The notes under the pieces: generated by a model
Told to the model about the DNA's origin: nothing
The model's database searches: none
What the model saw: the letters and a program-made list of their open reading frames with translations, nothing else
Shown: positions 39,425-56,544 of the stretch, in pieces
How the letters are laid out: each line of letters opens with the position of its first letter
Position numbering within the stretch: position 1 is the first letter of the stretch
Translations under genes and position numbers: made by a program
Origin: Cytophagales bacterium
Lineage (GTDB): Bacteria > Bacteroidota > Bacteroidia > Cytophagales > UBA9547
DNA length: 64,000 nt
Assembly: GCA_013297755.1 (NCBI GenBank)
Contig: JAAFIH010000001.1
Location: 140,303 to 204,302 of the forward strand
Reading direction: 5' to 3'

Positions 39425-39459
39425 TAAAAAAGGATTACTTTTTTAGCAATCCTTTTTTT
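39425..39459. terminator. bidirectional hairpin shared by the convergent S8 and AAA+ genes
   Basis: aaaaaaggatt-ac-tttttta-gc-aatcctttttt begins 3 nt after the S8 stop and contains the ATPase stop codon (39435-39437). A/T runs lie on both sides. Confidence 0.5.
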
Positions 39460-40463
39460 TCTGTTTGAATCAGTTCCAGCCATTTACTCGTTTGTATTTT
39501 AGGCTGTAACTTTAATACATTTTCTGACAACTCAAACACGCTACGCTTAATAGCTGTAATCAATGTTTTTTGTATAGAATAAAAGGACAATCCCAAACTT
39601 TCATTAATACATTTTTGAGAAGTAGTTTTGTTATCAAATGTGAAATTAGAATTTGCAATCACTTTGCTTACCAATTCCGTAATTTGTTTTTTATTAGGCA
39701 ATTCCAAATCAATTGATAAATCAATTCTTCTTAAAATAGCATCATCTAACATGTCTTTTTGATTAGTAGCTGCAATCAAAATAGTATCCTGAGGCAAGTA
39801 ATCAAACAATTGTAGTAAAGTATTAACCACTCGTTTCATTTCTCCATGATCTTGTGAGTAATCTCTAATTTTACCAAGGCTATCAAATTCATCTAAGAAA
39901 ATAATACAACTTTCAGAAGCCGCTCTTCTAAATATTTTGGATAAATTTTTACTGGTTTCACCTAACTTTGAAGAAACAATAGAACCTAAATCAATAACGT
40001 ACATCATTTTTTCAAGTTCACCAGCTAAAACATAAGCAGCTAATGTTTTACCACAGCCCGATGGGCCATGCAATAAAATTTTATTTGAAACGGGTAAATT
40101 ATGCTCTCTTAAAAAGTTAATTTTTTTATGCTCCTTAATGAAATATTCTAATTCATTTTTCACACTCTCACTAGCAACTAAATCTTTCATGCGATAATCA
40201 GAAGTTAATTTTTCGAGTATAAACTCATTCACTTCTTTATCCTGTTCTCTGATTTGATGTTTTAAAGAACCAACTTGTGTAAGTCCACTTGTTTGGTGAT
40301 GGCGAATAGCGTCCTTTAAAATCGATTGCAGTTGAATTGCAAAATTTACTTTCTTAGTTTGCTTAGCATAATCTATCAATTCATTCAAAGAAGACAATAG
40401 TTTATCCTGGTCATTTTCAAGACCGTATTTCGCTATATCTTTTATGAAGTCAAATTGGCTCAC
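39435..40463 (-). CDS. classical-clade AAA+ ATPase, IetA-like
   Basis: Walker A GPSGCGKT (K139), Walker B IIFLDEFD, sensor-1 ATN, arginine pair ILRR. 342 aa with a ~120-aa helical N-domain. GTG start. Confidence 0.85.
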   Translation of the reverse strand: MSQFDFIKDIAKYGLENDQDKLLSSLNELIDYAKQTKKVNFAIQLQSILKDAIRHHQTSGLTQVGSLKHQIREQDKEVNEFILEKLTSDYRMKDLVASESVKNELEYFIKEHKKINFLREHNLPVSNKILLHGPSGCGKTLAAYVLAGELEKMMYVIDLGSIVSSKLGETSKNLSKIFRRAASESCIIFLDEFDSLGKIRDYSQDHGEMKRVVNTLLQLFDYLPQDTILIAATNQKDMLDDAILRRIDLSIDLELPNKKQITELVSKVIANSNFTFDNKTTSQKCINESLGLSFYSIQKTLITAIKRSVFELSENVLKLQPKIQTSKWLELIQTEKKGLLKK

Positions 40464-40542
40464 TATATATAATTTTCAATGTCGCAATAAAGGCATAAAT
40501 CCAGTATCCTACAATATTTTTCTGTTTTTTTCTATCCTCACC

Positions 40543-41247
40543 CTACACCTCTATAAATATATCTTGTAATAAAGAAATGTAATGAGATTCTGAAATTTTT
40601 TCGTTTTCAAACGCTTTATGCGATAGTTTCTCATAATCTCCAATTACTGTATTTTCATTTCCTTTTTTATATAATGAATTATCAAATCCAAGTTCTTCAG
40701 CTTTTTGGATAACATTGATTTGTTTCAATTCTTCATATCTTGTTTTATCTATTATTCCTAAAATAAGCAATCTGTAAATCAATGCCTTATGCGAACATTG
40801 AAAATGCTGTTCTAGCTTAAAAATAGTTTGCAATGAAATATTTTTTTCTTCAAACTCATGTTCTGGTATTTCAGCATATATTTTATCTTCTGGCAACATC
40901 AGATATATGGCAAATAAATCTGCGGCATATTCATTTTTGTCTTTTTTATCAAACAAGCCTGTTTTAGAAGTTTCAGATACAAAATCGTCTTGTACAAATA
41001 GATGATACAATTCATGACAAATCGTAAAATTTTGTCTTCCAATAGAATGGTCGCTATTTACCATCATAAACCTATGATTTCCTGTTTTTACAGCCATTCC
41101 AGAAATAGAAGATTCAGTTCCTCCTAGCAAAAAAACAGTTATCACTTTTTGTTTTTCTAAAATTTCATGAAACTTTAGTTTTTCAAATTGTTTTAAACCT
41201 GAGTTTTCTCTAAAAAGTACAGCTTGTTTTTTAATGAGATGCTCCAT
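40543..41247 (-). CDS. ImmA/IrrE family zinc metallopeptidase
   Basis: HEXXH motif as H78-ELYH, and the downstream EYAADLFAIYLMLPE typical of the ImmA/IrrE (DUF955) fold. The start overlaps the XRE stop (TAATG). Confidence 0.85.
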   Translation of the reverse strand: MEHLIKKQAVLFRENSGLKQFEKLKFHEILEKQKVITVFLLGGTESSISGMAVKTGNHRFMMVNSDHSIGRQNFTICHELYHLFVQDDFVSETSKTGLFDKKDKNEYAADLFAIYLMLPEDKIYAEIPEHEFEEKNISLQTIFKLEQHFQCSHKALIYRLLILGIIDKTRYEELKQINVIQKAEELGFDNSLYKKGNENTVIGDYEKLSHKAFENEKISESHYISLLQDIFIEV

Positions 41248-41582
41248 TACTGTGTCAGCTTTACTATTTTTAAATAATTCTTTACTATTTTTTTGAATTT
41301 GGCAATATTTTCTAAATCTGTATTGGTCAATCCCTCTGCCCTAAATGCAAAAGCCATATTGGCTGTTTTGTTATCAGATGCTTCTTCCAAAAGCTCAATT
41401 TCATCTACACCAAATAGGTCTGACATTTTTTTTAAAATAGCTACATTGGGCATTCGTATACCATTTTCATAATAACTTATCATTTCACGTTTTACCCCCA
41501 AAAATTGAGCCATATTTTCTTGATTCAATCCCAATCTCTCTCTTAATAATTTGATGTTGTTTCCTAATATTTGAGTTTCCAT
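41247..41582 (-). CDS. XRE-family helix-turn-helix transcriptional regulator
   Basis: LRERLGLNQENMAQFLGVKREMISYYENG is an HTH_3 motif. The start is set at METQILG (ATG at 41582), because the longer ORF runs through the operator and promoter palindromes. Confidence 0.85.
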   Translation of the reverse strand: METQILGNNIKLLRERLGLNQENMAQFLGVKREMISYYENGIRMPNVAILKKMSDLFGVDEIELLEEASDNKTANMAFAFRAEGLTNTDLENIAKFKKIVKNYLKIVKLTQ

Positions 41583-41608
41583 TTTATTTTGTTTATTTAA
41601 AGAAATAA

Positions 41609-41657
41609 TTGTTACAAAATTAATACAATATTTTAAAAAATTAAAATATTGTAACAA
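41609..41657 (-). promoter_or_regulatory. operator-like palindromes plus -7 box upstream of the XRE gene
   Basis: TTGTnACAA occurs at 41609-41617 and 41649-41657. The inverted repeat acaatatttta/taaaatattgt is at 41625-41635 and 41642-41652. A minus-strand TAATTTTG -7 box is at 41615-41622. Confidence 0.45.
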
Positions 41658-41861
41658 AAATATTTTTTAATAAATTTTATAATTTTCTAATTCAAGTTTT
41701 TAATTTTCATTCAATTTTCTTGATTTAACTTACCTTCTAAAAAATCATTTTCAAAAAGGGGCTATACTTTTAATTGTGTCATAGAAAATATTTTTTTCTT
41801 TCATGTCCAATTCTTTAAAAGTCAATCGTCATTGGGGTATAAATCTTAAATATATCTCAAA

Positions 41862-42410
41862 ATGACTAAAAAAGTAAAACTCAAATGGCTTATTATACCT
41901 GCAGTGGTATGGGCAAGTCAGGCTGCCTTTGGGCAAAAAAAAGTAATTTCAATTCAATCTTCCATTGAAATCAAGGCTCAACAAAATGAAATTTTTGTAC
42001 TGCTAAAAAACCTAGAAAGATACCCAGAATGGTCGCCTTTTTTGGTATCAGACCCTCAACAAAAACATACTGTAACGGGCATAAACGGAGAAATTGGCGC
42101 CACATTTTACTGGCTGGGTGTTTCAGAAAATAGTAAAGGTTATCAAACCTTGAGCCAAACAAACGTAAACGATTACATAAAATTTGATTGTACTATCGAA
42201 AAACCTTTCAAAGGAAATCCTGTGTTTGAATATAAGTTCATTCAAAAAAATAACGGTATTTTAGTAACTCAAGATTTTAATCTCAGGCTTTCAGGATTTT
42301 CTTATTTTATGACCAAACTTTTTGGTGTAAAAAAGAAAATGACTGCCATAAATCAACTAGGACTGGAAAGACTAAAAAAATTATCAGAAAAAGAAACTTC
42401 GCTTAATTAA
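41862..42410 (+). CDS. SRPBCC (START/polyketide-cyclase-like) family protein with signal peptide
   Basis: N-terminal signal, LERYPEWSPF motif, about 180 aa. Confidence 0.6.
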   Translation: MTKKVKLKWLIIPAVVWASQAAFGQKKVISIQSSIEIKAQQNEIFVLLKNLERYPEWSPFLVSDPQQKHTVTGINGEIGATFYWLGVSENSKGYQTLSQTNVNDYIKFDCTIEKPFKGNPVFEYKFIQKNNGILVTQDFNLRLSGFSYFMTKLFGVKKKMTAINQLGLERLKKLSEKETSLN

Positions 42411-42453
42411 ATCAAACAATTTTATTATTATTAACCTTTAAATTTACAAAACA

Positions 42454-42795
42454 ATGAATGAATTTATGATGATTTTCAGACACACGCCAAATCCAGATTT
42501 TAAAATGTCGCCAGAGCAAATGCAAACCAGCATCAAGCAATGGCAAGATTGGATTGGGGGCATTGCCGCTCAAGGTAAGTTTATTGCTACCAACCAATTG
42601 GGTTTTGAGGGTAAAACATTGAAATCCAATAAGGTAATCACAGATGGCCCTTATGCAGAATTGAAAGAAATCGTTGGTGGATATGTACTTTGCAAAGCAG
42701 CAAACATAGACGAAGCCATATCTATGGCAGAAGGATGTCCAATATTATACATTGGTGGACACGTAGAAGTAAGAAATATTATGAAAATAAACTAA
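42454..42795 (+). CDS. YciI family protein
   Basis: 113 aa. WIGGIAAQGKF...DGPYAELKEIVGGYVLCKAANIDEAISMAEGCP is typical of YciI/DGPF proteins found next to SigJ-type sigma factors. Confidence 0.7.
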   Translation: MNEFMMIFRHTPNPDFKMSPEQMQTSIKQWQDWIGGIAAQGKFIATNQLGFEGKTLKSNKVITDGPYAELKEIVGGYVLCKAANIDEAISMAEGCPILYIGGHVEVRNIMKIN

Positions 42796-42982
42796 GTACT
42801 TCAAAATTTTATCTTTAGGGAACTTCTAAAAACCTCATTTAAAATGTTTTCTTCTCTTTTGTAGGGGAGTATAGTAAGGTTTTTGAAAATATATTTGTGG
42901 TTTTTAAAAGTTCCCATAAGTTTTAAAAAAAGTTTGTAAAAAAAATTTAATCTATTTAATTCACATTTTAAACATTACCAAT

Positions 42983-43438
42983 ATGATATTACCAAACATT
43001 TTCAATCAAAACGTAGCCGATCAAGTTATCGGTCGAATAAACAACCTAAAACCCACTACGCAACCGCAATGGGGAAAAATGAATGCTACACAAGTGTTGG
43101 CTCACTGCAACGTAACCTACGAAATGGCGTTTGAAAACAAACATAAACCCAATTTTGTAATGGCAATTATGCTAAAAGCGTTTGTAAAAAAAGTTGTTGT
43201 TACAGAAGTTCCTTATAAAAAAAGTTCTCAAACGGCTCCTGCTTTTATCATCAAAGACGATAGAAATTTTGAAAAAGAGAAAAACAGACTCATTGGCTAT
43301 ATCAATAAAGGTGTAGAGATGGGAGAAAATAGTTTTGAGGGCAAAGTATCACATTCGTTTGGCGTACTTTCAAAAACAGAATGGAACAATATGTTTTACA
43401 AACACATCGACCACCATTTGGTGCAATTTGGGGTATAA
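42983..43438 (+). CDS. DUF1569/DinB-like protein
   Basis: About 150 aa. QPQWGKMNATQVLAHC and a C-terminal HHLVQFG resemble DUF1569. Confidence 0.5.
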   Translation: MILPNIFNQNVADQVIGRINNLKPTTQPQWGKMNATQVLAHCNVTYEMAFENKHKPNFVMAIMLKAFVKKVVVTEVPYKKSSQTAPAFIIKDDRNFEKEKNRLIGYINKGVEMGENSFEGKVSHSFGVLSKTEWNNMFYKHIDHHLVQFGV

Positions 43439-43537
43439 AATTTTAGGTGTTGTGTAATATTCAACACAACACCTAAAACAATAAACTCAATTAAAATTAA
43501 AAAATATTCATTATATTTGATTATCAATTTGCTAATT

Positions 43538-43768
43538 ATGAGAACACTCAATGTATCCATTTCTGATATAGAATACAATAAGTTTGGAATCAAACAAGAC
43601 AAACTTAATTTTACTGACTTTATTGAACTTGTGCGTAATGAACTCATGCGACAAAACTTAAACAAATGCGTTGAACTTGCACATAAATATGGGCTTTCTA
43701 AAATGACTTTAGAAGAGATTAATGATGAAGTAAAATCGGTAAGAAAAAATGCAAAAAATAATCATTGA
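43538..43768 (+). CDS. putative antitoxin of the PIN toxin
   Basis: 76 aa. It overlaps the PIN gene start by 20 nt. The ATG at 43538 is preferred over the upstream TTG. Confidence 0.5.
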   Translation: MRTLNVSISDIEYNKFGIKQDKLNFTDFIELVRNELMRQNLNKCVELAHKYGLSKMTLEEINDEVKSVRKNAKNNH

Positions 43769-44141
43769 CACCAATGTTATTGTTTCAAGTCTTATTCAAC
43801 GAAACTATCCCTTTTTTATCATTAATGAGCTTTTTATTGGTGATAAAATTCAGCTTTGTGTTTCTGATGAACTCTTGACGGAATATTATGAAGTTTTAAA
43901 AAGACCTAAGTTTTCAAAATTTCAAGACTTTTTTGTAAAAGCCGAATCATTTCTTGTCGACATCGAAACGAAAGCAACAAAATTTTATCCCACTATTATT
44001 CTTAATCTTATTTCTGACGATGATGATAATATGATTTTAGAATTAGCAGACGAGTGTAAAGCAGACTTTGTGATTACTGGCAATACATCAGACTTTACTT
44101 TTTCGTCATACAAACAAACAAAAATCTTAACGCCAAGATAA
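43749..44141 (+). CDS. PIN-domain toxin (type II TA system)
   Basis: IIIDTNVIVSSL N-terminal acidic motif, DDDNMILELA, and C-terminal VITGNTSDF. Confidence 0.8.
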   Translation: MQKIIIDTNVIVSSLIQRNYPFFIINELFIGDKIQLCVSDELLTEYYEVLKRPKFSKFQDFFVKAESFLVDIETKATKFYPTIILNLISDDDDNMILELADECKADFVITGNTSDFTFSSYKQTKILTPR

Positions 44142-44273
44142 TATTGGGATAATTATAAACCACAATAAAGTACCAAAAAAACAATCAATTGCTTAAAAAC
44201 ATAGTTATTCTTAAATAAAAAATTTAAAATTTGGTAATAATTTATAAATATTTTTTATCTATAAATTTAGGTA

Positions 44274-45500
44274 ATGCTACAAAACGAACTCATCCCAAAA
44301 TTATTTAAAACAGAGTATAGCAAAATTGTAGCTGTACTCTGTAAATTATTTGGGCTTGATCATATCGAAACGGCCGAAGACATAACCAACGATACTTTTT
44401 TGTTGGCTGCCGAAACTTGGGGACTAAAAGGTATTCCCGAAAACCCAACAGCTTGGCTCTATTTTGTGGCAAAAAACAAAACTAAAGACTATTTGAAAAG
44501 AAATCAACTTTTTGCCGAAAAAGTAAGTTTACAAATAAAATCGCAACTATCAAACGAAGAAATCGACTTAGACTTATCTGCTCAAAACATAAATGATAGT
44601 CAATTACAAATGATTTTTGCAGTATGCAATCCTATTGTACCCGTAGAATCGCAGGTGGGTTTGGCTTTAAAAATACTGTGTGGATTTGGAATAGACGAAA
44701 TAGCAGCTGCTTTTCTGACCAATAAAGAAACCATCAACAAAAGACTTTACAGAGCAAAAGAAAAATTAAGAACTCAAAATATTCAATTCGAGATACCCTC
44801 GCAAACCGAGATAAAAGCAAGACTTGAACCTGTTTTATTAACCATTTATTTGTTATTCAACGAAGGATATTATTCTAATTCTCAAAACAAAATTTTGCAA
44901 AAAGAGCTTTGCGTAGAAGCCATGCGTTTGTGTTATTTTTTGGTTGATAACAATTTGACAAACAAACCCGAAACATTTGCTTTGCTATCGTTGATGTGTT
45001 TTCATGCCTCTCGATTTGAGGCTAGAAAAAACGAATCAGACGAAATTATTTTGTATGACGACCAAAACAGAGATTTATGGAACGAAGATTTAATAGCCAA
45101 AGGAAACCAATATTTGATAGAAAGTGCCAAAGGACAAGAAATTTCTAAATATCACTTAGAAGCCAGGATAGCCTACTGGCATTGTACAAAAACGGGAAAT
45201 GAAAACAAATGGGAGCATATTTTACAACTCTACAACCAATTGCTTCAAATAGACTACTCCCCTATTGCAGCCCTAAACAGAACTTACGCTTTGGCAAAAG
45301 TAAAAGGAAATGAAACTGCCATACCCGAAGCTCAAAAACTACATCTAGAAAATAATCATTTTTATTATACTTTACTTGGATATCTTTACACCCAAATAGA
45401 CAATAAATTAGCAAAAGAAAACTATCAAAAAGCCCTAAAATTAACCAGATCTGCACAAGACAAGTTGATTTTATCAAAAAAAATTGAGCTATTGAAATGA
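44274..45500 (+). CDS. ECF-type RNA polymerase sigma factor with long C-terminal extension (SigJ/DUF6596-like)
   Basis: Sigma-2 region (TNDTFLLAAETW...WLYFVAKNKTKDYLKR), sigma-4 HTH (EIAAAFLTNKETINKRLYRAKEKL), then about 230 aa of helical/TPR-like extension. Confidence 0.75.
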   Translation: MLQNELIPKLFKTEYSKIVAVLCKLFGLDHIETAEDITNDTFLLAAETWGLKGIPENPTAWLYFVAKNKTKDYLKRNQLFAEKVSLQIKSQLSNEEIDLDLSAQNINDSQLQMIFAVCNPIVPVESQVGLALKILCGFGIDEIAAAFLTNKETINKRLYRAKEKLRTQNIQFEIPSQTEIKARLEPVLLTIYLLFNEGYYSNSQNKILQKELCVEAMRLCYFLVDNNLTNKPETFALLSLMCFHASRFEARKNESDEIILYDDQNRDLWNEDLIAKGNQYLIESAKGQEISKYHLEARIAYWHCTKTGNENKWEHILQLYNQLLQIDYSPIAALNRTYALAKVKGNETAIPEAQKLHLENNHFYYTLLGYLYTQIDNKLAKENYQKALKLTRSAQDKLILSKKIELLK

Positions 45501-48200: not shown

Positions 48201-49079
48201 TTACTTATCTATATTCAACAAAGGTTGCATTTTGCCATCTGTTATGATAATTTTAGAGTTTTGGGATTTGGCCAAATTATCCAGTGCTTGTATTGATTTA
48301 TATTTTAATACAGCTGGATTCAAGGTTTTATTTATCAGCTCGTTTGATTTCATTACAGCATCAGCTTCTGTTTTTAGTGCATTTGCTTTGCCTTCGGCTT
48401 CTAGTTCTAGAGTACGCTTAAAACCCTCGGCTGCAATAATTTTTGATTGTTTGTCGCCCTCAGCCTGAATTTGCTTGATTTCTACCGATTTTCGTTCTCT
48501 GTCTTTAATAAATTCCATCCTCAGAGCATCTTGTTCGGCTTGCAATTTCTCTTCTATGGCTTTGGCCAAACCATCAGGCATCACAATAGATTTCATCATT
48601 ACACGCTCTATGATAAATCCACGTGGCTCCAAAATTTCTTCCATTTGCGATTTAATTTGCACTTCAATTTCGGCTCTTTTAGAACTGTGCATATCTTTTG
48701 CATCAAATCGTGAACATATATCAGCGGCAGCCGACCTAAAAACTGGACTTATCAATTCGTTTTCAAATCCAAACCCTATCTGAGATAGTATTTTGGGCAA
48801 CTCTTCCGTTTTTATTTTGTACAAAATAGAAATTTCTGCATTGATATTCAACCCTTCTTTGGAGGGCAAAATCATATTTATTTGCAAATTAACTGTCCTT
48901 ACAGGAGCAGTAATAATAGTGGCAACAAAGGGATTGAAAAACCTTGGTCCAGGCCCATAAACAATAGGTTTTATTTTACCCATAGTTCGCTTTACGGCTA
49001 CCTCATCTTGATTTACAATTTTACAAGAACTCAAAAAAAACATTGAAATAGCAGAAATAAGTAACTTATTTTTCGACAT
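48201..49079 (-). CDS. SPFH/Band-7 (prohibitin/HflC-like) lipoprotein
   Basis: Lipobox FLSSC, SPFH core, and a coiled-coil A/E/K-rich C-terminal half. Confidence 0.8.
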   Translation of the reverse strand: MSKNKLLISAISMFFLSSCKIVNQDEVAVKRTMGKIKPIVYGPGPRFFNPFVATIITAPVRTVNLQINMILPSKEGLNINAEISILYKIKTEELPKILSQIGFGFENELISPVFRSAAADICSRFDAKDMHSSKRAEIEVQIKSQMEEILEPRGFIIERVMMKSIVMPDGLAKAIEEKLQAEQDALRMEFIKDRERKSVEIKQIQAEGDKQSKIIAAEGFKRTLELEAEGKANALKTEADAVMKSNELINKTLNPAVLKYKSIQALDNLAKSQNSKIIITDGKMQPLLNIDK

Positions 49080-49245
49080 GAGTGTAAATTTTAATAGTAA
49101 ATTAAATATTTATACTTGTTTTAACTAAAATTGGTTGCATTTAACGAAAACGCTTATCGAAAAAGAGTAAATCTTAGCATTAAAGCCCAAATAAGTACAA
49201 AAGCCCCATTTATATTCCAAAGTTCAATGTAGCACTTTTGCCCCA

Positions 49246-49477
49246 TTTTTGCCAAACCAACGTTTAACTGATACCCTATCAGTTAAACAATCAGCCAACA
49301 ATTTTACTATATTTGCCAATCATTTAAAAACAAATATATGATTAATTTTCAAAAAAAACAATGTAGGTAAAATGGGTCTCAATCAACATTAGCAAACAAA
49401 AAAAAGTCCACATCTAAGTTGTAGGTCAGGGCTTTTTTTAAGGGCTTTTTTTTCGCTAGATGGCTGGATGTTGTGTA
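49246..49477 (+). repeat. ~230-bp non-coding repeat element, copy 1 (full)
   Basis: It aligns with 53281-53508 and 54348-54430. It contains a perfect 12-bp inverted repeat gtttaactgata-ccc-tatcagttaaac (49262-49288), ctatatttgcc (a TAnnTTTG box), ttgtaggtc and two gggcttttttt motifs. Confidence 0.8.
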
Positions 49478-49514
49478 CCGTTTTTTTGTACATTGCTACA
49501 TCTTTATTAATTTA

Positions 49515-49955
49515 CTAATACGTAACTATTTGCTTGAGATGATGCTCCAAATGTTCGACATAATCGTTAATCAAGTATTCAAGTGTTAAATAGTTTTCGC
49601 CAACCAAACACTCTAATTGTAAATTTTCATTTGGTATTTTTTTAAATAGCTCAATCAATTGCTTGTTATAAATTGTCCAGAAACCAATAATTTGATTGCT
49701 GTCGATTTGTTGATAAAAATTATATTTGGTCCAATCGTTTTGGGAATAAGATATTTTGGGTCTGTTCTCAAATTGTGTTCTTATAAAACGCTGATGATTA
49801 TTTGTTGCACTGTCTATTAGGTGTCCTATAATTTCCTTTTTACTCCATTTTTCTGAGCTTGTTTTTTCATTCAATGCACTTTTTTCAATACTTCTTAATA
49901 AATCTGGAATGATTTTGCATAAGAAATCTAGTCTGTTAATTGCTTTTTCAATCAT
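49515..49955 (-). CDS. DinB family protein
   Basis: 146 aa four-helix pattern with His triad context (IGHLIDSATNNHQRF...YVEHLEHHLKQI). Confidence 0.7.
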   Translation of the reverse strand: MIEKAINRLDFLCKIIPDLLRSIEKSALNEKTSSEKWSKKEIIGHLIDSATNNHQRFIRTQFENRPKISYSQNDWTKYNFYQQIDSNQIIGFWTIYNKQLIELFKKIPNENLQLECLVGENYLTLEYLINDYVEHLEHHLKQIVTY

Positions 49956-49986
49956 AGTTAATAAATATTATTTCTATTATTTTCAC

Positions 49987-50418
49987 CTAAATTTGTTTCC
50001 AAAAATGGAATCCTAAAATAGAAAATCCTGTATTGAAATAAAACTTATGAGATTTTGCGTTTTGAATATATGTGTTTAGTTCCAAAGTTTTACAATTATT
50101 ATTTTTTGCCCACATTTCTATATAGTTCATGAAAATCGTCCCTAATCCTTTAGATTGTAAAGTTTTATCAATAATTACATTATCTATTTCAAGTTGTTTA
50201 CCTGAATATAAACGAACTGTTATCCACCCACTTGAAATTCCAATCAGATTTTCATTATAAAAAAGTCCAAAACACTTGTAAGAGGAATATGTAAACATTT
50301 CTTTTAAAAAATCTTGTACCTGATAAACAGTCAGTTGAGAATTCAGTTGTTGTCCAAGTATAGAGATTTCTCTAATATCATTTACTGATAAAATCTTAAA
50401 ATTTATTTCCTCTTTCAT
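49987..50418 (-). CDS. GNAT family N-acetyltransferase (A)
   Basis: LQSKGLGTIFMNYIEMWAKNN acetyl-CoA motif. Start set at MKEEINF (ATG at 50418), because the longer ORF reads into a repeat. Confidence 0.7.
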   Translation of the reverse strand: MKEEINFKILSVNDIREISILGQQLNSQLTVYQVQDFLKEMFTYSSYKCFGLFYNENLIGISSGWITVRLYSGKQLEIDNVIIDKTLQSKGLGTIFMNYIEMWAKNNNCKTLELNTYIQNAKSHKFYFNTGFSILGFHFWKQI

Positions 50419-50470
50419 TAATGTTTTTTTGTCTGATTGGTTCGCTAAAATAGAACATAACTGTCTGGAT

Positions 50471-51508
50471 ATTTGTGAAGGAATGAAAGACAGGGCTACG
50501 AAATTGTCCAACGAGAGAAGCTAAGCGAGAGCTAAACTACGACCTACAAACAAAACACTTTCATTAATAAATACCATGTTGAGTGCCGTATTATTTCTTT
50601 TCGTTCAGTTTTTTCATTAATTCAGCAATTAATAGGTCTTTCTCGGTCAATGCTTGGTCTTTTTCCTTTAGTTTTTGTAGATACTTTTTCTCTTTATCTT
50701 CAAACATAGCATTTACTGTTCTCCAAGCCTCTTGTTCGGTTTCAATTTTCTTTTTCTCCTCCGAATTAGTCCCTGAATGATGTAAAATATCAGTTGCAAT
50801 TTTTATTTCTTCTATATCTACTACATGTGTAAATTCCTTAATAATTTTCTTGTCATCCACAAAGTTCTTTTGCTCAAATATGCTCAATAGTTTGTCCAAA
50901 CGAGTTTGGTACCTGTCTGTAATTCTTTCTACCTGAACTATATAGCTGTCATGGGTCAGTTTCTCTACAAAATCACTTTTAGTTTCTAAGGTAGTTTTGT
51001 TGATTTGGTCTTTATAATTTCGCTCAACTTTTAAGCAAGAAGTTGCTATCTCTGGCAATGTAAATCCTAAAATATAAATGGTGGTAATCGGTAAAATAAC
51101 TTTTTCGTTATCTACATTATCTTCTTTTTTATACTGCTCTGCCAGATAGTTTCTGAAACGCATCAAATCAATTTGATTTTTTGCTTTCTGAATTTCAATT
51201 AACACTTTTTTGAGTTCACCAGTATCGGTTTTTATAGTAGCAATAAAATCAAGTCTAAAAACTGAGAGTCCTGCCAATTCGTCTGTGTAGGTAAACTCTT
51301 GAGGTTTTACTTCAACCATTTCAATGCTTTGTTCCAATAATGTACCAATGAAAAACTTAGCTACTCGCTCGTTTTCCATCATTCGCTTAAAAACTACATC
51401 ATATATTGGATTTGCAATTACCATTTTAGTTTAAATTAGTTTCAAATTTACGACTAATTTACCATTTTTCAAACTTGGCTTTTAATCTTTAATTTTTGTG
51501 TTGTAAAT
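50471..51508 (-). repeat. 1.04-kb direct repeat unit A (Rpn-like gene plus flanks)
   Basis: Near-identical to 52014-53178 at an offset of 1542-1543 bp. Its right edge covers the last 6 codons plus the stop of GNAT B. Confidence 0.85.
50591..51424 (-). CDS. Rpn/YhgA-like PD-(D/E)XK nuclease family protein (putative transposase), copy 1
   Basis: IYDVVFKRMM N-terminus, and RLDFIATI...VLIEIQKAK as the D...E-x-K core, with a coiled-coil tail. 277 aa. Confidence 0.7.
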   Translation of the reverse strand: MVIANPIYDVVFKRMMENERVAKFFIGTLLEQSIEMVEVKPQEFTYTDELAGLSVFRLDFIATIKTDTGELKKVLIEIQKAKNQIDLMRFRNYLAEQYKKEDNVDNEKVILPITTIYILGFTLPEIATSCLKVERNYKDQINKTTLETKSDFVEKLTHDSYIVQVERITDRYQTRLDKLLSIFEQKNFVDDKKIIKEFTHVVDIEEIKIATDILHHSGTNSEEKKKIETEQEAWRTVNAMFEDKEKKYLQKLKEKDQALTEKDLLIAELMKKLNEKK

Positions 51509-51968
51509 CAAATGTATAGGTATAATATTCTGTGTCTGGTTTTTGTCTTACAAATCCGATTTTTTCATATAGTCCTTGTTCTGTTTTGTTGTCAATTCCA
51601 GTAGAAAGTTCAAGTTTTTTTGCCTTTTTAGTCTCAGCAAATTCTATTGCTTTGTTTATCAAAAGTTCTCCAACTCCCATTTTTCTAAATTCTTGTTCTA
51701 CATACAAGTCATTTAATGTCCAGTTTTTTATAGCTCTGATTGATGAGTAATTTGGATAAAGTTGAGTAAATCCAATAGGTGTTTTTATATTCTCATTTTC
51801 TAAAAAAGCAACAAAAATGATGGATTCATGGCTGTTCAACCTATCTTGAATATATTTTTTTGCAAGTTCAATGTTAGATTCTTGGTTGTAAAATATTCGA
51901 TATTTGTTAAATAAGCCTATTACCAAGTTACTCTCGAGGTTACTAATCTGCCTGATTTCTATTTTCAT
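51489..51968 (-). CDS. GNAT family N-acetyltransferase (B), unrelated in sequence to A
   Basis: FRKMGVGELLINKAIEFAETKK acetyl-CoA motif. Start set at MKIEIRQ (ATG at 51968). Confidence 0.75.
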   Translation of the reverse strand: MKIEIRQISNLESNLVIGLFNKYRIFYNQESNIELAKKYIQDRLNSHESIIFVAFLENENIKTPIGFTQLYPNYSSIRAIKNWTLNDLYVEQEFRKMGVGELLINKAIEFAETKKAKKLELSTGIDNKTEQGLYEKIGFVRQKPDTEYYTYTFDLQHKN

Positions 51969-52132
51969 TTTTTTATGATTAAGGATTCCAAACACGGCAT
52001 ATAAAATGCAGGTATTTGTGAAGGAATGGGAGCAGGGCTACGAAATTGTCCAACGAGAGAAGCTAAGCGAGAGCTAAACTACGACCTACAAACAAAACCC
52101 TTTCATTAATAAATACCATGTTGAGTGCCGTA

Positions 52133-52966
52133 TTATTTCTTTTCGTTCAGTTTTTTCATTAATTCAGCAATTAACTGGTCTTTCGCTGTCAATGCTTGGT
52201 CTTTCTCCTTTAGTTTTTGTAGATACTTTTTCTCTTTATCTTCAAACATTGCATTTACTGTCCTCCAAGCCTCTTGTTCGGTTTCAATTTTCTTTTTCTC
52301 CTCCGAATTTGTACCTGAATGATGTAAAATATCAGTTGCAATTTTTATTTCTTCTATATCTACTACATGTGTAAATTCCTTGATAATTTTCTTGTCATCC
52401 ACAAAGTTCTTTTGCTCAAATATGCTCAATAGTTTGTCCAATCGAGTTTGGTACCTGTCTGTAATTCTTTCTACCTGAACTATATAGCTGTCATGGGTCA
52501 GTTTCTCTACAAAATCACTTTTAGTTTCTATGGTAGTTTTGTTAATTTGGTCTTTATAATTTCGCTCAACTTTTAAGCAAGAAGTTGCTATCTCTGGCAA
52601 TGTAAATCCTAAAATATAAATGGTGGTAATCGGTAAAATAACTTTTTCGTTATCTACATTATCTTCTTTTTTATACTGCTCTGCCAGATAGTTTCTGAAA
52701 CGCATCAAATCAATTTGATTTTTTGCTTTCTGAATTTCAATTAACACTTTTTTGAGTTCACCAGTATCGGTTTTTATAGTAGCAATAAAATCAAGTCTAA
52801 AAACTGAGAGTCCTGCCAATTCGTCTGTGTAGGTAAACTCTTGAGGTTTTACTTCAACCATTTCAATGCTTTGTTCCAATAATGTACCAATGAAAAACTT
52901 AGCTACTCGCTCGTTTTCCATCATTCGCTTAAAAACTACATCATATATTGGATTTGCAATTACCAT
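52133..52966 (-). CDS. Rpn/YhgA-like PD-(D/E)XK nuclease family protein, copy 2
   Basis: 277 aa, differing from copy 1 at 3 residues (L>I, and E/L to A/Q in LTEKDLL against LTAKDQL). Confidence 0.7.
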   Translation of the reverse strand: MVIANPIYDVVFKRMMENERVAKFFIGTLLEQSIEMVEVKPQEFTYTDELAGLSVFRLDFIATIKTDTGELKKVLIEIQKAKNQIDLMRFRNYLAEQYKKEDNVDNEKVILPITTIYILGFTLPEIATSCLKVERNYKDQINKTTIETKSDFVEKLTHDSYIVQVERITDRYQTRLDKLLSIFEQKNFVDDKKIIKEFTHVVDIEEIKIATDILHHSGTNSEEKKKIETEQEAWRTVNAMFEDKEKKYLQKLKEKDQALTAKDQLIAELMKKLNEKK

Positions 52967-53137
52967 TTTAGTTTAAATTAGTTTCAAATTTACGACTAAT
53001 TTACCATTTTGTACCAATGAAAAACTTAGCTACTCGCTCGTTTTCCATCATTCGCTTAAAAACTACATCATATATTGGATTTGCAATTACCATTTTAGTT
53101 TAAATTAGTTTCAAATTTACGACTAATTTACCATTTG
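52884..53137. repeat. perfect 2 x 127-bp tandem duplication of the Rpn copy-2 5' end plus upstream region
   Basis: Unit 1 is 52884-53010 and unit 2 is 53011-53137. The junction reads ttaccatttt|gtaccaatg. Confidence 0.9.
53001..53093 (-). pseudogene. 30-codon Rpn-like gene fragment created by the 127-bp duplication
   Basis: It reads MVIANPIYDVVFKRMMENERVAKFFIGT, then KW-stop at the duplication junction. Confidence 0.8.
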
Positions 53138-53280
53138 TCAAACAAGGCTTTTATGTTTTAATCTTTGTGTTGTAAATCGGTTTGGCGTTTGGCAAAGAAG
53201 CGAATGTCGAAGCACTAAACTATCTATCAACATTAAACTTGAATAGAAGCACAAATCTTCATTTAAGCCCTGAACCAGCT

Positions 53281-53508
53281 TTTTTGCCAAAACCGTGTTG
53301 AACAGACACCCTATAAGTTAAACAATCGGCCAACAATCTTACTATATTTGCCTTACATTTAAAAACAAATATATGATTATTTTTCAAAAAAAAAATGTAG
53401 GTAAAATGAGTTTCAATCATCAATTTTAAATAAAAAAAGCAATCTAATTTGTAGGTCGGGGCTTTATTTCAGGGCTTTTTTTTGCTAGATGGCTGAATGT
53501 TTTGTGTA
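53281..53508 (+). repeat. ~230-bp non-coding repeat element, copy 2 (full)
   Basis: It aligns with copy 1. In this copy the element is bracketed by the 10-bp inverted repeat aagccctgaa (53265-53274) and ttcagggctt (53468-53477). Confidence 0.8.
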
Positions 53509-53521
53509 GTATGATTTGTCG

Positions 53522-53824
53522 CTAGAGTTGGAGCGTCAATTTCAGCTGTCCGCCAAGTCCTTGTTGAATTATTTTCATAAGTGTCGAAAGGCGAATGTCT
53601 GATGAATTATTTTCGATACGTGAAATGTATGATTTATTTGTTCCACACTTATCCGCTAATTCTTCTTGAGTCAAATTTAGTTTTGTTCTGGCTTGTTCAA
53701 GTAAAACACCAAGTCTAAATCCCTCAAATTGCAGTTCCCATTCTTCTCGTTTTGGGTTTCCTTTTTTACCATACTTTTTGTCAAGTATTTCGTCTAAAGT
53801 CGTAATATTACTCTTTGTTTTCAT
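53522..53824 (-). CDS. XRE-family HTH antitoxin (HigA-like)
   Basis: ARTKLNLTQEELADKCGTNKSYISRIENN is an HTH_3 motif. It overlaps the upstream toxin ORF by 17 nt. Confidence 0.8.
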   Translation of the reverse strand: MKTKSNITTLDEILDKKYGKKGNPKREEWELQFEGFRLGVLLEQARTKLNLTQEELADKCGTNKSYISRIENNSSDIRLSTLMKIIQQGLGGQLKLTLQL

Positions 53825-54152
53825 TTTGATATTCCTCCATTATTTTAATTGCTTTTTCTAATTCTTGTTTTGGGGTCTTTTGAGTTTTCTTTTGAAAAGC
53901 GTTTCCAAGCACTACTAAATTTCCTTTATCGAAGAATGAAAAAATACGATAAATATTACTAGCAACTTCAACTCGAATTTCATAAAGTCCTTTAGTTCCC
54001 TCCAAATGCTTAAAATACTTTTCTGGAACTTGTTGCGTTACTCGAATTAAATTCAAAGTCTACTCAATTTTAGCTTGGACGTTTTCGGGAAGTTCTTCAT
54101 AAAAGTCGAGAAAGTAGTTTTTATAAGCAATTACCTGTCTATCGTAAGTCAC
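53808..54152 (-). pseudogene. RelE/ParE-superfamily (HigB-like) toxin interrupted by an in-frame TAG
   Basis: From the GTG at 54152 the frame reads VTYDRQVIAYKNYFLDFYEELPENVQAKIE, then TAG (54062-54060), then TLNLIRVTQQVPEKYFKHLEGTKGLYEIRV.... The track ORF is only the TTG-initiated C-terminal 82 aa. Confidence 0.7.
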
Positions 54153-54347
54153 AATACAAAGTTAACTATACAGACAACTATTTCCAAACTTAAATTCAAT
54201 TATTTTTTAAATATTAGGTCGTCCGGTAACATTGCCACCAATGTTTTACAGATTGGCATGGACGGCCTTTTCAGCACAAAAGTTAGTTCAGAGTACTGAA
54301 ATTTTGGCTACCACAAAGCTGTAAATAGGAGAATAAACCCTACCTAA

Positions 54348-54430
54348 TGCCAAGCCGTTGTTTAACTGACACCCTATCAGCTAAAAAATCGGCCAACAAT
54401 CTTACTATATTTGCCTTACATTTAAACAAA
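54348..54430 (+). repeat. ~230-bp repeat element, copy 3 (left third only)
   Basis: It aligns with the first ~85 bp of copies 1 and 2, including a degenerate palindrome and ctatatttgcc, then diverges. It lies 41 bp from the msrA stop. Confidence 0.7.
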
Positions 54431-54471
54431 ATTGTTAAGTTTAAACGAATGAAACAGTATTTTTTTTAAGT

Positions 54472-55095
54472 TTACTTAACTTTCTCAGGAAAAACTTTTC
54501 TGAATTTTTCTATTTTGGGTTTGATTACAAAATAGCAATAAGGTTGCGAGCCATTGAGATTGTAGTAATTTTGATGATAATTTTCGGCTTCATAAAATGT
54601 AGATGCTTCCACAATTTCTGTTGTTAGAGGTTTAGAATATGCTCCAGATGCTTCAAGTTCTTTTTTCAACTGGCTAGATATATTTTTTTGAACTTCGCTA
54701 TGATAAAAAATAGCCGAGCGATATTGTGTGCCTACATCGTTGCCTTGTCTATTGAGGGTAGTGGGGTCGTGTGTTTTCCAAAAAATTTCTAAAACATCTT
54801 TTGTGCTTATGATTTCAGGATTATATGTTACCTGAATTACCTCAGCGTGGCCAGTTTCGCCAGTACAAATATCTTTATATGTTGGATTTTTCAAAGTCCC
54901 GCCCATGTAGCCAGAAACAACCTTTTGCACACCTTTGGCTTGCAAAAATACAGCCTCTACACACCAAAAACAACCTGCTCCAAGAGTAATAATTTCTTTA
55001 TTTTCCATATTTTTTGGTTGTTTTTTTTGTTGTGCTGATATATAGTTGTTTGAAATTAAGGTTGCAATTAAAAAACAATTAGCAAGTAGTTTCAT
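54472..55095 (-). CDS. msrA: peptide-methionine (S)-S-oxide reductase with signal peptide
   Basis: GAGCFWCVEAVF active site and GHAEVIQVTY. The N-terminal signal ends SAQ. Confidence 0.9.
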   Translation of the reverse strand: MKLLANCFLIATLISNNYISAQQKKQPKNMENKEIITLGAGCFWCVEAVFLQAKGVQKVVSGYMGGTLKNPTYKDICTGETGHAEVIQVTYNPEIISTKDVLEIFWKTHDPTTLNRQGNDVGTQYRSAIFYHSEVQKNISSQLKKELEASGAYSKPLTTEIVEASTFYEAENYHQNYYNLNGSQPYCYFVIKPKIEKFRKVFPEKVK

Positions 55096-55638: not shown

Positions 55639-55683
55639 TTCAAAATTTTGTGTAAGAATATATTTTTTATAAATAATATATTC

Positions 55684-56544
55684 TTACACAAATATCATCG
55701 TTAAAATACCCCAAATCATCGTCCATTTTAGAATTTTTGTAATCACTGTAAAATCATTTTTTTTGTCTGCATAGTAGTACTTTATATTCACGAATATAAG
55801 TAATATTATCGTCATGATATTAAGTAAAATATAATGAATCACATTAATATTGTTTCTTAAATAGATCAATACCAAAATAGTAATCAAACTTACGATATGT
55901 AATATAACTTTTGTTTTAGGTACACCTAATTTTATAGGTAATGTTTGGCTATTGTAGCTTTCATCGCCTTTGATGTCTTCTATATCTTTGGTAAGCTCTC
56001 TCATATAAGTAATTACAAAAGAAAAAAGACTGTAAAAAAGAATATAATCTTGGTTTGTTTTATAATAAAGTGCCAAAATATAAACACTACAAAAAGCTAG
56101 TAATGAGATAGTTATATTGCCAAGAATAGATGTACGTTTTAATCTATTGGAATAATACCAAAGTAATATTTCGCAAAATAAAATAAAAAATCCTACTTTT
56201 ATTGAAAGCACAAAAACAGCCAATAATAAAGCCAATAAATTAAGGCTTAATTGCAATATAAATGAGTTTCGCCTTGAAATAAATTTACCAATAATGACAC
56301 TTTCGGGCTTGTTGATTAAATCTATTTTTATGTCGTAATAATCGTTGATAATATATCCTGCGGCAGCTACTAATAATGTGCAAAACGATAAGATAAAAAT
56401 TTCTTTTTCTACAACGATAGCTCCCATTTCGGATGGCGAACCAATTAAGAAAATTCTACAAAAATATTGTAAAATCAATAAAATAATCAGATTCTTGATT
56501 CTTATAAGTCTAAAAAAATAAATAATTTGAGATGTAATTTCCAA
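55684..56544 (-). CDS. UbiA-family prenyltransferase
   Basis: The first Asp-rich motif GYIINDYYDIKID, a second acidic motif region KDIEDIKGD, and about 8 TM helices. Confidence 0.75.
   Translation of the reverse strand: MEITSQIIYFFRLIRIKNLIILLILQYFCRIFLIGSPSEMGAIVVEKEIFILSFCTLLVAAAGYIINDYYDIKIDLINKPESVIIGKFISRRNSFILQLSLNLLALLLAVFVLSIKVGFFILFCEILLWYYSNRLKRTSILGNITISLLAFCSVYILALYYKTNQDYILFYSLFSFVITYMRELTKDIEDIKGDESYNSQTLPIKLGVPKTKVILHIVSLITILVLIYLRNNINVIHYILLNIMTIILLIFVNIKYYYADKKNDFTVITKILKWTMIWGILTMIFV

Follow-up and report, generated by a model that had tools for sequence, protein, structure and literature searches.

The 64-kb stretch of contig JAAFIH010000001.1 from a Cytophagales bacterium that was analysed here (the window) carries three copies of a ~255-bp non-coding element between a gene for an SPFH/Band_7 protein and msrA. 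The copies are direct repeats in a single orientation, and they partition two mutually unrelated blocks of accessory-type genes; the repeat is real and lineage-restricted. We tentatively propose, with a probability of about 0.4, that serial single-crossover events inserted cargo between the stop codon of msrA and a terminator hairpin, leaving the copies as junction repeats. As in an additive islet, direct repeats lie at every module boundary, the joints are hybrid, and a partial repeat stands against the core flank. Serial insertion at a repeated att-like site had been among the options raised in the initial annotation of this DNA. It is the option that best fits the discrete copies, the unrelated cargo, the mosaic structure of copy 2 and the variation at the element edge, although no recombinase was found in the window. 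All positions below refer to the numbering of the whole window, and the orientation of the element is that of the plus strand.

The limits of the copies were set within the window with nhmmer, together with blastn. Copy 1 (49224-49481, + strand), which was delimited by nhmmer, blastn and alignment, is full length and lies between the stop codon of a DinB_2 gene (49515) and the sequence that precedes the SPFH gene. Copy 2 (53259-53510, +) is likewise full length, and copy 3 (54347-54442, +) comprises the left third only; both were delimited by nhmmer and alignment. Two full-length copies and one left third in the same orientation had been described before, and this description holds, with limits 10-25 nt wider than first reported. 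It is also correct that each copy lies 3' of a minus-strand gene (DinB, HigA-like and msrA), at 12-34 nt past the stop: 34 nt for DinB_2, 12 nt for the HTH_3 antitoxin gene and 30 nt for msrA, whose stop codon is at 54472. About 96 nt are common to all three copies. The match between copies 1 and 2 had nhmmer E-values of 7e-40 to 4e-41, and copy 3 was recovered at 1e-11 to 1e-13. Alignment of copies 1 and 2 over 264 columns gives 80.7% identity; in the left block common to the three copies, every pair shows 81-86%. The 24-nt core GCCAACAATYTTACTATATTTGCC has three matches, compared with 0.00 expected from shuffled sequence, and nhmmer detected no fourth copy in the window. The left flanks of the three copies are unrelated, their local-alignment scores being at the level of shuffled sequence. 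Between copies 1 and 2, conservation is concentrated in the central 68 nt, which are 94% identical (64/68) versus 81% overall. The element is non-coding, because a minus-strand reading frame of 54 aa in copy 2 is disrupted by frameshift and stop in copy 1. In addition, its small open reading frames (ORFs) had no Pfam match, and a profile built from the minus-strand translations of the three copies found no match among 5.8 billion proteins.

The three copies form a mosaic pattern. Copies 2 and 3 have a 40-nt run in common (53324-53363 = 54387-54426, +), which is exact amid 84% overall identity and is a candidate crossover block. A 24-nt run identical between copies 1 and 2 (49321-49344 = 53356-53379, +) overlaps this block at CATTTAAA. 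To the left of CATTTAAA, six variants set copies 2 and 3 apart from copy 1; on its right side, the similarity of copies 1 and 2 remains at 80-94%, and copy 3 diverges toward msrA. The nearest neighbour of copy 2 switches at this point, from copy 3 on the left to copy 1 on the right.

The left third of the element contains a palindrome that is perfect in copy 1 (12-3-12, 49262-49288). Its degeneration in the other copies, noted already in the initial annotation, was borne out by the pair counts: 8/12 pairs are kept in copy 2 (53297-53323) and 9/12 in copy 3. On the minus strand, which is the gene-sense strand, the left third forms a 20-21 bp hairpin in the two outer copies. In copy 1, the palindrome and a G.U-rich outer stem make up an extended hairpin at 49250-49300 (-18.5 kcal/mol, z -4.5), and in copy 3 the corresponding hairpin at 54348-54398 has 21 pairs (-19.6 kcal/mol, z -3.2) and lies 86 nt past the msrA stop. 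In copy 2 the hairpin is broken (z 0.2 for the minus strand, z ~0 for the degenerate palindrome on both strands). The plus-strand folds of the left third are 5-9 kcal/mol weaker than those of the minus strand, and two of the three departures from the palindrome in copy 3 are transitions that are still G.U-paired, on the minus strand only. A promoter/terminator scan marked the copy 1 palindrome as terminator-like on the minus strand. The spacer that separates the convergent DoxX and UbiA genes holds another AT-rich palindrome (55647-55692; 23-nt arms of 96% complementarity, 18 perfect pairs in the fold, -19.5 kcal/mol, z -8.3), probably a bidirectional terminator. The left-third hairpin resembles it, and long AT-rich palindromes past stop codons look like a local style of terminator. 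The pattern in the three copies fits a terminator that is needed past msrA and at the end of the array, not in mid-array, and msrA and the last cargo gene probably still rely on the hairpin as a terminator or 3' end.

We compared the locus with Logan contigs of the same organism (samples SRR99489xx, namely SRR9948921-34). The SPFH, DinB, HigA and msrA proteins encoded by these contigs are identical to those of the window, and the contig ends fall inside the element or at its edges. The msrA contigs stop at 54387, which is the edge of the 40-nt run of copies 2 and 3. The SPFH contigs match the window throughout the SPFH gene and the 146 nt preceding it, up to 49225-49228; L005 and L006 have 3-5 differences in the 20 nt beyond this identity, and L007-L009 stop at 49225. 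Strain variation therefore starts exactly at the left edge of copy 1, since the contigs are identical through the SPFH flank and then differ or stop. Across the samples SRR9948921-34 (L005-L010), at least three sequence variants were seen past 49228 (49226-49248). One contig breaks within an A8 run (49346-49358), implying variation in homopolymer length.

Outside this locus, the element was sought in GTDB species representatives, JGI metagenomes, IMG/VR, and plasmid and phage records. The core pattern CCAACAATNTTACTATATTTGCC had 0 matches among the GTDB species representatives, and the core pattern CAACAATNTTACTATATTTGCC had 0 matches each in the JGI metagenomes and IMG/VR. A central-block pattern had 0 matches in IMG/VR, and BLAST with copy 2 found no match among the plasmid and phage records. 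Among 174 fetched related loci (1.9 Mb in total), the element was present only in contigs of this same locus. The host is a low-GC (~31%) member of the Bacteroidota, whose SPFH protein is 82% identical to a protein from a Cytophagales metagenome-assembled genome (MAG).

In the proposed model, the ancestral locus would have consisted of msrA, ~30 nt, a terminator-type hairpin corresponding to the left third of the element, and the SPFH promoter region. Two cargo modules would have entered successively via single-crossover (Campbell-type) recombination, the first with the DinB, GNAT and PD-(D/E)XK-like genes and the second with the HigBA pair, and each would have recombined through its own ~255-bp "tail" with the resident homologous sequence. 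The crossover would have taken place in or adjoining the block ...TTACTATATTTGCCnnnCATTTAAA. Copy 1 would then be made up of the chromosomal left part and the right arm of module 1, copy 2 of the left arm of module 1 and the right arm of module 2, and copy 3 of the left arm of module 2 and the chromosomal right part adjoining msrA. The recombination could have been either site-specific, with a recombinase encoded elsewhere or since lost, or homologous. The repeat with its discrete edges, the mosaic, the hairpin pattern, the strain variation at the element edge and the lack of an integrase in the checked parts of the window are observed; the order of the events, a circular intermediate and the type of recombination are the parts of the model that we infer.

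Serial insertion would explain the direct orientation of the copies, their sharp edges, the partial copy at msrA and the unrelated cargo, as well as the retention of the hairpin past msrA and before the SPFH gene and the onset of strain variation at the element edge. The lack of an integrase is also in its favour: in agreement with the initial annotation, none, and no tyrosine recombinase, was found among the scanned ORFs of the window or in the precomputed annotation of the overlapping contigs. Several observations weigh against it. No recombinase was identified in the window. The copies are only 81-86% alike, so that either the events would be old or the incoming tails would already have diverged. 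The strains differ in the left part of copy 1, which the model makes chromosomal, and gene conversion among the copies must be invoked to accommodate this. The locus also duplicates by itself, as seen from a 1040-bp repeat (97%) and a 127-bp tandem duplication, and the high conservation of the central block could reflect a function that the model leaves unexplained. The mosaic would be produced equally well if copies 2 and 3 were sisters with copy 1 as the outgroup and copy 3 had lost its right part by deletion. As for relatives, the best 80 msrA loci of GTDB representatives are only 53-70% identical, and the element was in none of them; the closest SPFH homologues (79-82% identical) have no synteny with the window and different neighbours. 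The locus offers no empty-site comparison, because the relatives with ~80% identical SPFH proteins have entirely different neighbours, and the breaks and variants of contigs at the element edge bear on an empty site or excision only indirectly.

Additive islands that grow by tandem accretion include the integrase-less cis-mobilizable elements (CIMEs) adjoining ICESt1/ICESt3 in Streptococcus thermophilus and the tRNA-linked islands with repeated att scars in Prochlorococcus. Like CIME-type islands, the locus has direct repeats that divide unrelated accessory modules beside a core gene, a partial repeat at one end, hybrid (mosaic) joints, and modules that lack an integrase of their own and are decaying. 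Unlike in those islands, the repeat is long (~96 nt in three copies, ~255 nt in two) and 81-86% identical instead of a short exact core, the proposed target is the stretch from the msrA stop codon to the terminator, where those islands use a tRNA gene or the 3' terminus of a coding sequence, and no integrating element or recombinase is known for the repeat. There is no tRNA gene anywhere in the window. If the accretion reading is true, the locus would show in compact form how accessory genes accumulate at a single intergenic position in a sparsely sampled lineage of the Bacteroidota, and the stretch between a stop codon and a terminator could act as a landing site. The pattern would be useful for detecting islands in MAGs, because assemblies break exactly at such repeats. 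Current understanding would be unchanged, since additive islands bounded by direct repeats are already well known, and wider interest hinges on a dedicated recombinase or further arrays.

Two rival explanations were considered next, both of which we find unlikely. In one of them, which had been an option of the initial annotation and for or against which the findings do not decide, the element is a small non-coding gene on the plus strand, present as paralogues, with a palindromic operator, a Bacteroidota-type promoter (TATATTTG) and a ~115-135-nt RNA ending at a hairpin and T-run, copy 1 being intact, copy 2 decaying and copy 3 reduced to the promoter. Paralogous small RNA genes with a conserved operator and promoter are exemplified by Qrr, PrrF and LhrC. 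The element resembles them in that the promoter-proximal and 5' part is the best conserved (from the box to ~+65 in copies 1 and 2), the middle is variable, and a hairpin in copy 1 is followed by a T-run. This hairpin of the right module (49399-49453, +; -14.2 kcal/mol, z -2.9) is flanked by an A-run and T-runs (T7 and T8) and favours the plus strand via G.U pairs. Moreover, the palindrome ends 19 nt upstream of the box and copy 1 has a 5' hairpin (AATCAT...ATGATT); copy 1 preserves all of these structural features and copy 2 has them in degraded form, as would be the case for a live gene and pseudo-copies. Unlike Qrr, PrrF and LhrC, however, the copies show no structural conservation and no sign of covariation, belong to no Rfam family, have weak promoter evidence on both strands, and in one case lack the whole RNA body. 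Rfam 15 yielded 0 matches at gathering thresholds in the whole window and 0 even at E <=5 in 48900-54600, and the whole putative plus-strand transcripts are no more stable than shuffled controls (z -0.67 and +0.45). Both the 5' and the terminator hairpins are lost in copy 2, in which the equivalent of the right-module hairpin (53432-53483) is unstable (z 0.16); no compensatory changes were seen, and two copies are too few for covariation. The box TATATTTG, first annotated as an exact TAnnTTTG -7 box, does occur in all three copies (49308-49315, 53343-53350 and 54406-54413, +), one base away from the coordinates first given, but it argues only weakly for a promoter: the octamer occurs 177 times in the window with an intergenic density only ~2x the intragenic one, no -33 TTG is found at the usual spacing (19-21 nt), and copies 1 and 2 each contain an equivalent box on the opposite strand (49338-49331 and 53373-53366, -). 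The minus-strand-only pairing of the changed palindrome in copy 3 likewise speaks against a plus-strand gene, and such a gene would leave the exact placement of the copies at the cargo joints unexplained. The other explanation, passive local segmental duplication, has in our view the same low odds. Here an intergenic stretch would have been copied and its neighbours later gained, lost or rearranged, with no role in mobility or expression. The 5 kb indeed hold the 1040-bp repeat (97%), the 127-bp tandem and an orphan 3' end of a GNAT gene (GNAT-B), the element occurs nowhere else in the searched collections, and its copies are diverged, one of them degenerate. An arbitrary duplication would, however, have brought neighbouring sequence along, whereas copies 1 and 2 have common sharp ends without flanking homology. 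The blocks between the copies are unrelated, so that extra insertions and deletions would be required, and neither the hairpin kept in the outer copies with wobble-compatible changes nor the strain variation that starts exactly at the element edge would be expected.

The remaining explanations concern other mobile systems, and we consider all of them improbable. The boldest is that the ~255-bp element is the site of an undescribed cassette-capture system without its own integrase in an uncultured Cytophagales-related lineage. The element would be the attachment site of the modules, whose insertion between the stop codon and the terminator of a host gene would depend on recognition of the strand-specific hairpin by a recombinase encoded elsewhere. 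Such a system would be a functional analogue of the integron with a different type of site; the chance of this is very small. Smaller still is the chance of an integron-like or other hairpin-site cassette array, in which genes are followed by a 3' site whose folded hairpin is recognised by a recombinase encoded elsewhere, as in an attC cluster without an integrase. Like chromosomal integron arrays and attC clusters lacking an integrase, the locus has small, accessory and uniformly oriented cargo (GNATs, a toxin-antitoxin pair and a DinB-family gene), a repeat that lies past gene 3' ends and is alike within the array, and no integrase encoded nearby. The hairpin is strand-biased and bulged in copy 3, and the palindrome arms GTTTAAC/GTTAAAC fit RYYYAAC and GTTRRRY, the consensus of the integron boxes. 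An attC site, however, has an imperfect hairpin that spans the site, paired R''/L'' and L'/R' boxes, a spacer and extrahelical bases, within ~57-141 bp. In the element, nothing folds beyond the 27-nt palindrome (the right part as single-stranded DNA has z -1.4 to +0.4), the only box pair has its boxes just 13 nt apart, with no second (L) pair or spacer, and the length of ~255 bp is about twice the attC maximum. There are 3 sites for 7 genes, several of which lie between repeats, and the homology of the three copies extends over ~96 nt on one side of any crossover, not 6 nt. An attC site proper was ruled out by the folding, as the element-wide imperfect hairpin is absent. Least probable of all is a non-autonomous mobile element or modular intergenic repeat, such as a miniature inverted-repeat transposable element (MITE), BOX or a repetitive extragenic palindrome (REP)-like sequence, inserted three times here. 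Such an element might account for the modular look, with copy 3 as the left module only, and the 3' untranslated position and the hairpin resemble REP elements. Copy 2 does contain the 10-bp inverted repeat that had been described as terminal (AAGCCCTGAA at 53265-53274 and TTCAGGGCTT at 53468-53477), and one position in copy 1 has apparently changed on both arms (G->T left, C->A right). The repeat is, however, only near the ends: its right arm lies ~35 nt inside the element, and copy 1 matches at 6/10 positions. No target-site duplications were seen as direct repeats in the flanks, no copy was found in the other 59 kb of the window or in any searched collection, and the three copies share one orientation at a single locus. 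The suggestion of a MITE-like element is not supported, as terminal inverted repeats, target duplications and, in the window and the searched collections, dispersed copies were lacking.

Xer-type sites were also compared with the palindrome. Xer-dependent elements (IMEX, integrative mobile elements exploiting Xer) and the pdif modules of Acinetobacter plasmids are similar to the modules here in that integrase-less modules are flanked by palindromic recombinase-type sites and often carry toxin-antitoxin cargo; the palindrome arm also has an outer GTTAAA like that of the XerD arm. The pdif modules differ in having inverted sites, the repeats here being direct. A dif site is 28 bp long, with two 11-bp arms, a 6-bp centre, inner ATAA...TTAT and a TTATGTTAAAT-like XerD arm. 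The palindrome here is instead 11-5-11 with inner TGAT...ATCA, without ATAA/TTAT, and only the outer GTTAAA matches the dif sites predicted for Bacteroidota, which read ...ATAAT-N6-ATTATGTTAAAT (Kono et al. 2011, PMC3025954 supplement). Dif-like matches in the window did not exceed chance, and near 54-58 kb the cumulative GC skew passes through a weak minimum instead of a maximum, with no terminus-type switch from + to -. A canonical dif/Xer site was ruled out on the basis of the published predictions, the lack of an above-chance match and the GC skew.

A short motif of the element, TTGTAGGTC, had been reported to recur past both of the genes then called Rpn-like. It is present there, on the minus strand at 50541-50548 and 52083-52090. 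The link is probably due to chance: the window has 16 instances of TGTAGGTM, and the motif is not conserved when the homologous 3' sequences from other genomes are compared. Shuffles give an expectation of 2.2, and half of the 16 lie within 49-53.5 kb. The remaining ones are mostly on the minus strand and intragenic, and a codon-pair effect may be possible. On the same grounds, the 16 occurrences in the window and the lack of conservation in homologous 3' sequences, TGTAGGTC was ruled out as a shared terminal repeat.

Every gene between 47.4 and 55.1 kb is on the minus strand, and the cargo is co-oriented with msrA. The core flanks are the SPFH/Band_7 gene on the left (48201-49079, -; assigned by Pfam and identical in 9 contigs) and msrA on the right (54472-55095, -; Pfam). 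Cargo block 1 (49515-53258, -) consists of DinB_2 (49515-49955), GNAT-A (49987-50418), the first copy of a gene for a 277-aa PD-(D/E)XK-like protein (50591-51424), GNAT-B (51489-51968) and the second copy of the 277-aa gene (52133-52966), DinB_2 and the GNATs being assigned by Pfam. The two GNATs are only 24% identical to each other. The two 277-aa gene copies are 97% identical and belong to a duplicated 1040-bp unit, comprising the gene and its flanks, of the same identity (50470-51509 vs 52012-53051). A 127-bp tandem duplication lies at the 5' end of the 277-aa gene (52874-53000 vs 53001-53127), and the final 21 nt of GNAT-B recur as an orphan at 53158-53178; the duplications of block 1 are recent. 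Cargo block 2 (53522-54155, -; Pfam) consists of a gene for a Gp49/HigB-like toxin, in which an in-frame TAG leaves an ORF at 53808-54056 (-), and the HTH_3 antitoxin gene (53522-53824, -), so that the toxin-antitoxin pair is decayed, as had been stated. The same HigB-like and HTH arrangement is present in a contig found in 10 samples. Decay of the modules is seen in the nonsense codon of the toxin gene and the local duplications of block 1.

The initially annotated gene content was upheld by the Pfam matches, but the "Rpn-like" label of the 277-aa proteins was not: they matched no family in Pfam, NCBIfam or PHROG, the models PDDEXK_2, Transposase_31 and TIGR01784 included. The family has an invariant D59...E77-x-Q79-K80 motif, and we take this D...E-x-Q-K arrangement to fit a PD-(D/E)XK nuclease. 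The motif and a weak PDB match to a CRISPR-associated protein (E 0.37) suggest a nuclease of the PD-(D/E)XK fold. The AlphaFold model was poor (predicted local distance difference test score, pLDDT, 56), the fold search with it giving meaningless matches. The family is large, with more than 3797 homologues across Bacteroidota, mostly on short contigs, and the top 120 are 73-100% identical. At one locus (L091), the 277-aa gene lies amid restriction-modification and AbiE genes. The ~255-bp element was in none of the 76 metagenome loci encoding the 277-aa protein. A 3' stretch recurs past the 277-aa gene (50455-50590 and 51997-52132 in the window; L091:4349-4487, L096:2021-2160, L098:1151-1290 and L100:1284-1425 elsewhere), and it may be the end of a mobile unit. 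The first ~17 nt past the stop (TACGGCACnnAACA) recur in ~15/52 loci from different metagenomes, and the longer form of 115-130 nt occurs only in the closest subset. As a structured RNA, the 3' sequence gave no consensus structure in RNAalifold (-0.33 kcal/mol).

A second accessory-type cluster, without the 255-bp element, occupies 39435-45500. It includes a pair of HTH and Peptidase_M78 (ImmA/IrrE-like) genes, an AAA ATPase, YCII and DUF1569 (DinB-like) genes, a PIN_3 toxin with a small partner, and a sigma-70/DUF6596 gene. Finally, a strong plus-strand hairpin at 54216-54268 (AGGTCGTCCGG...CATGGACGGCCT; -21.7 kcal/mol, z -3.7), followed by TTTTC, sits between copy 3 and the start of higB and is opposed in direction to the neighbouring genes.

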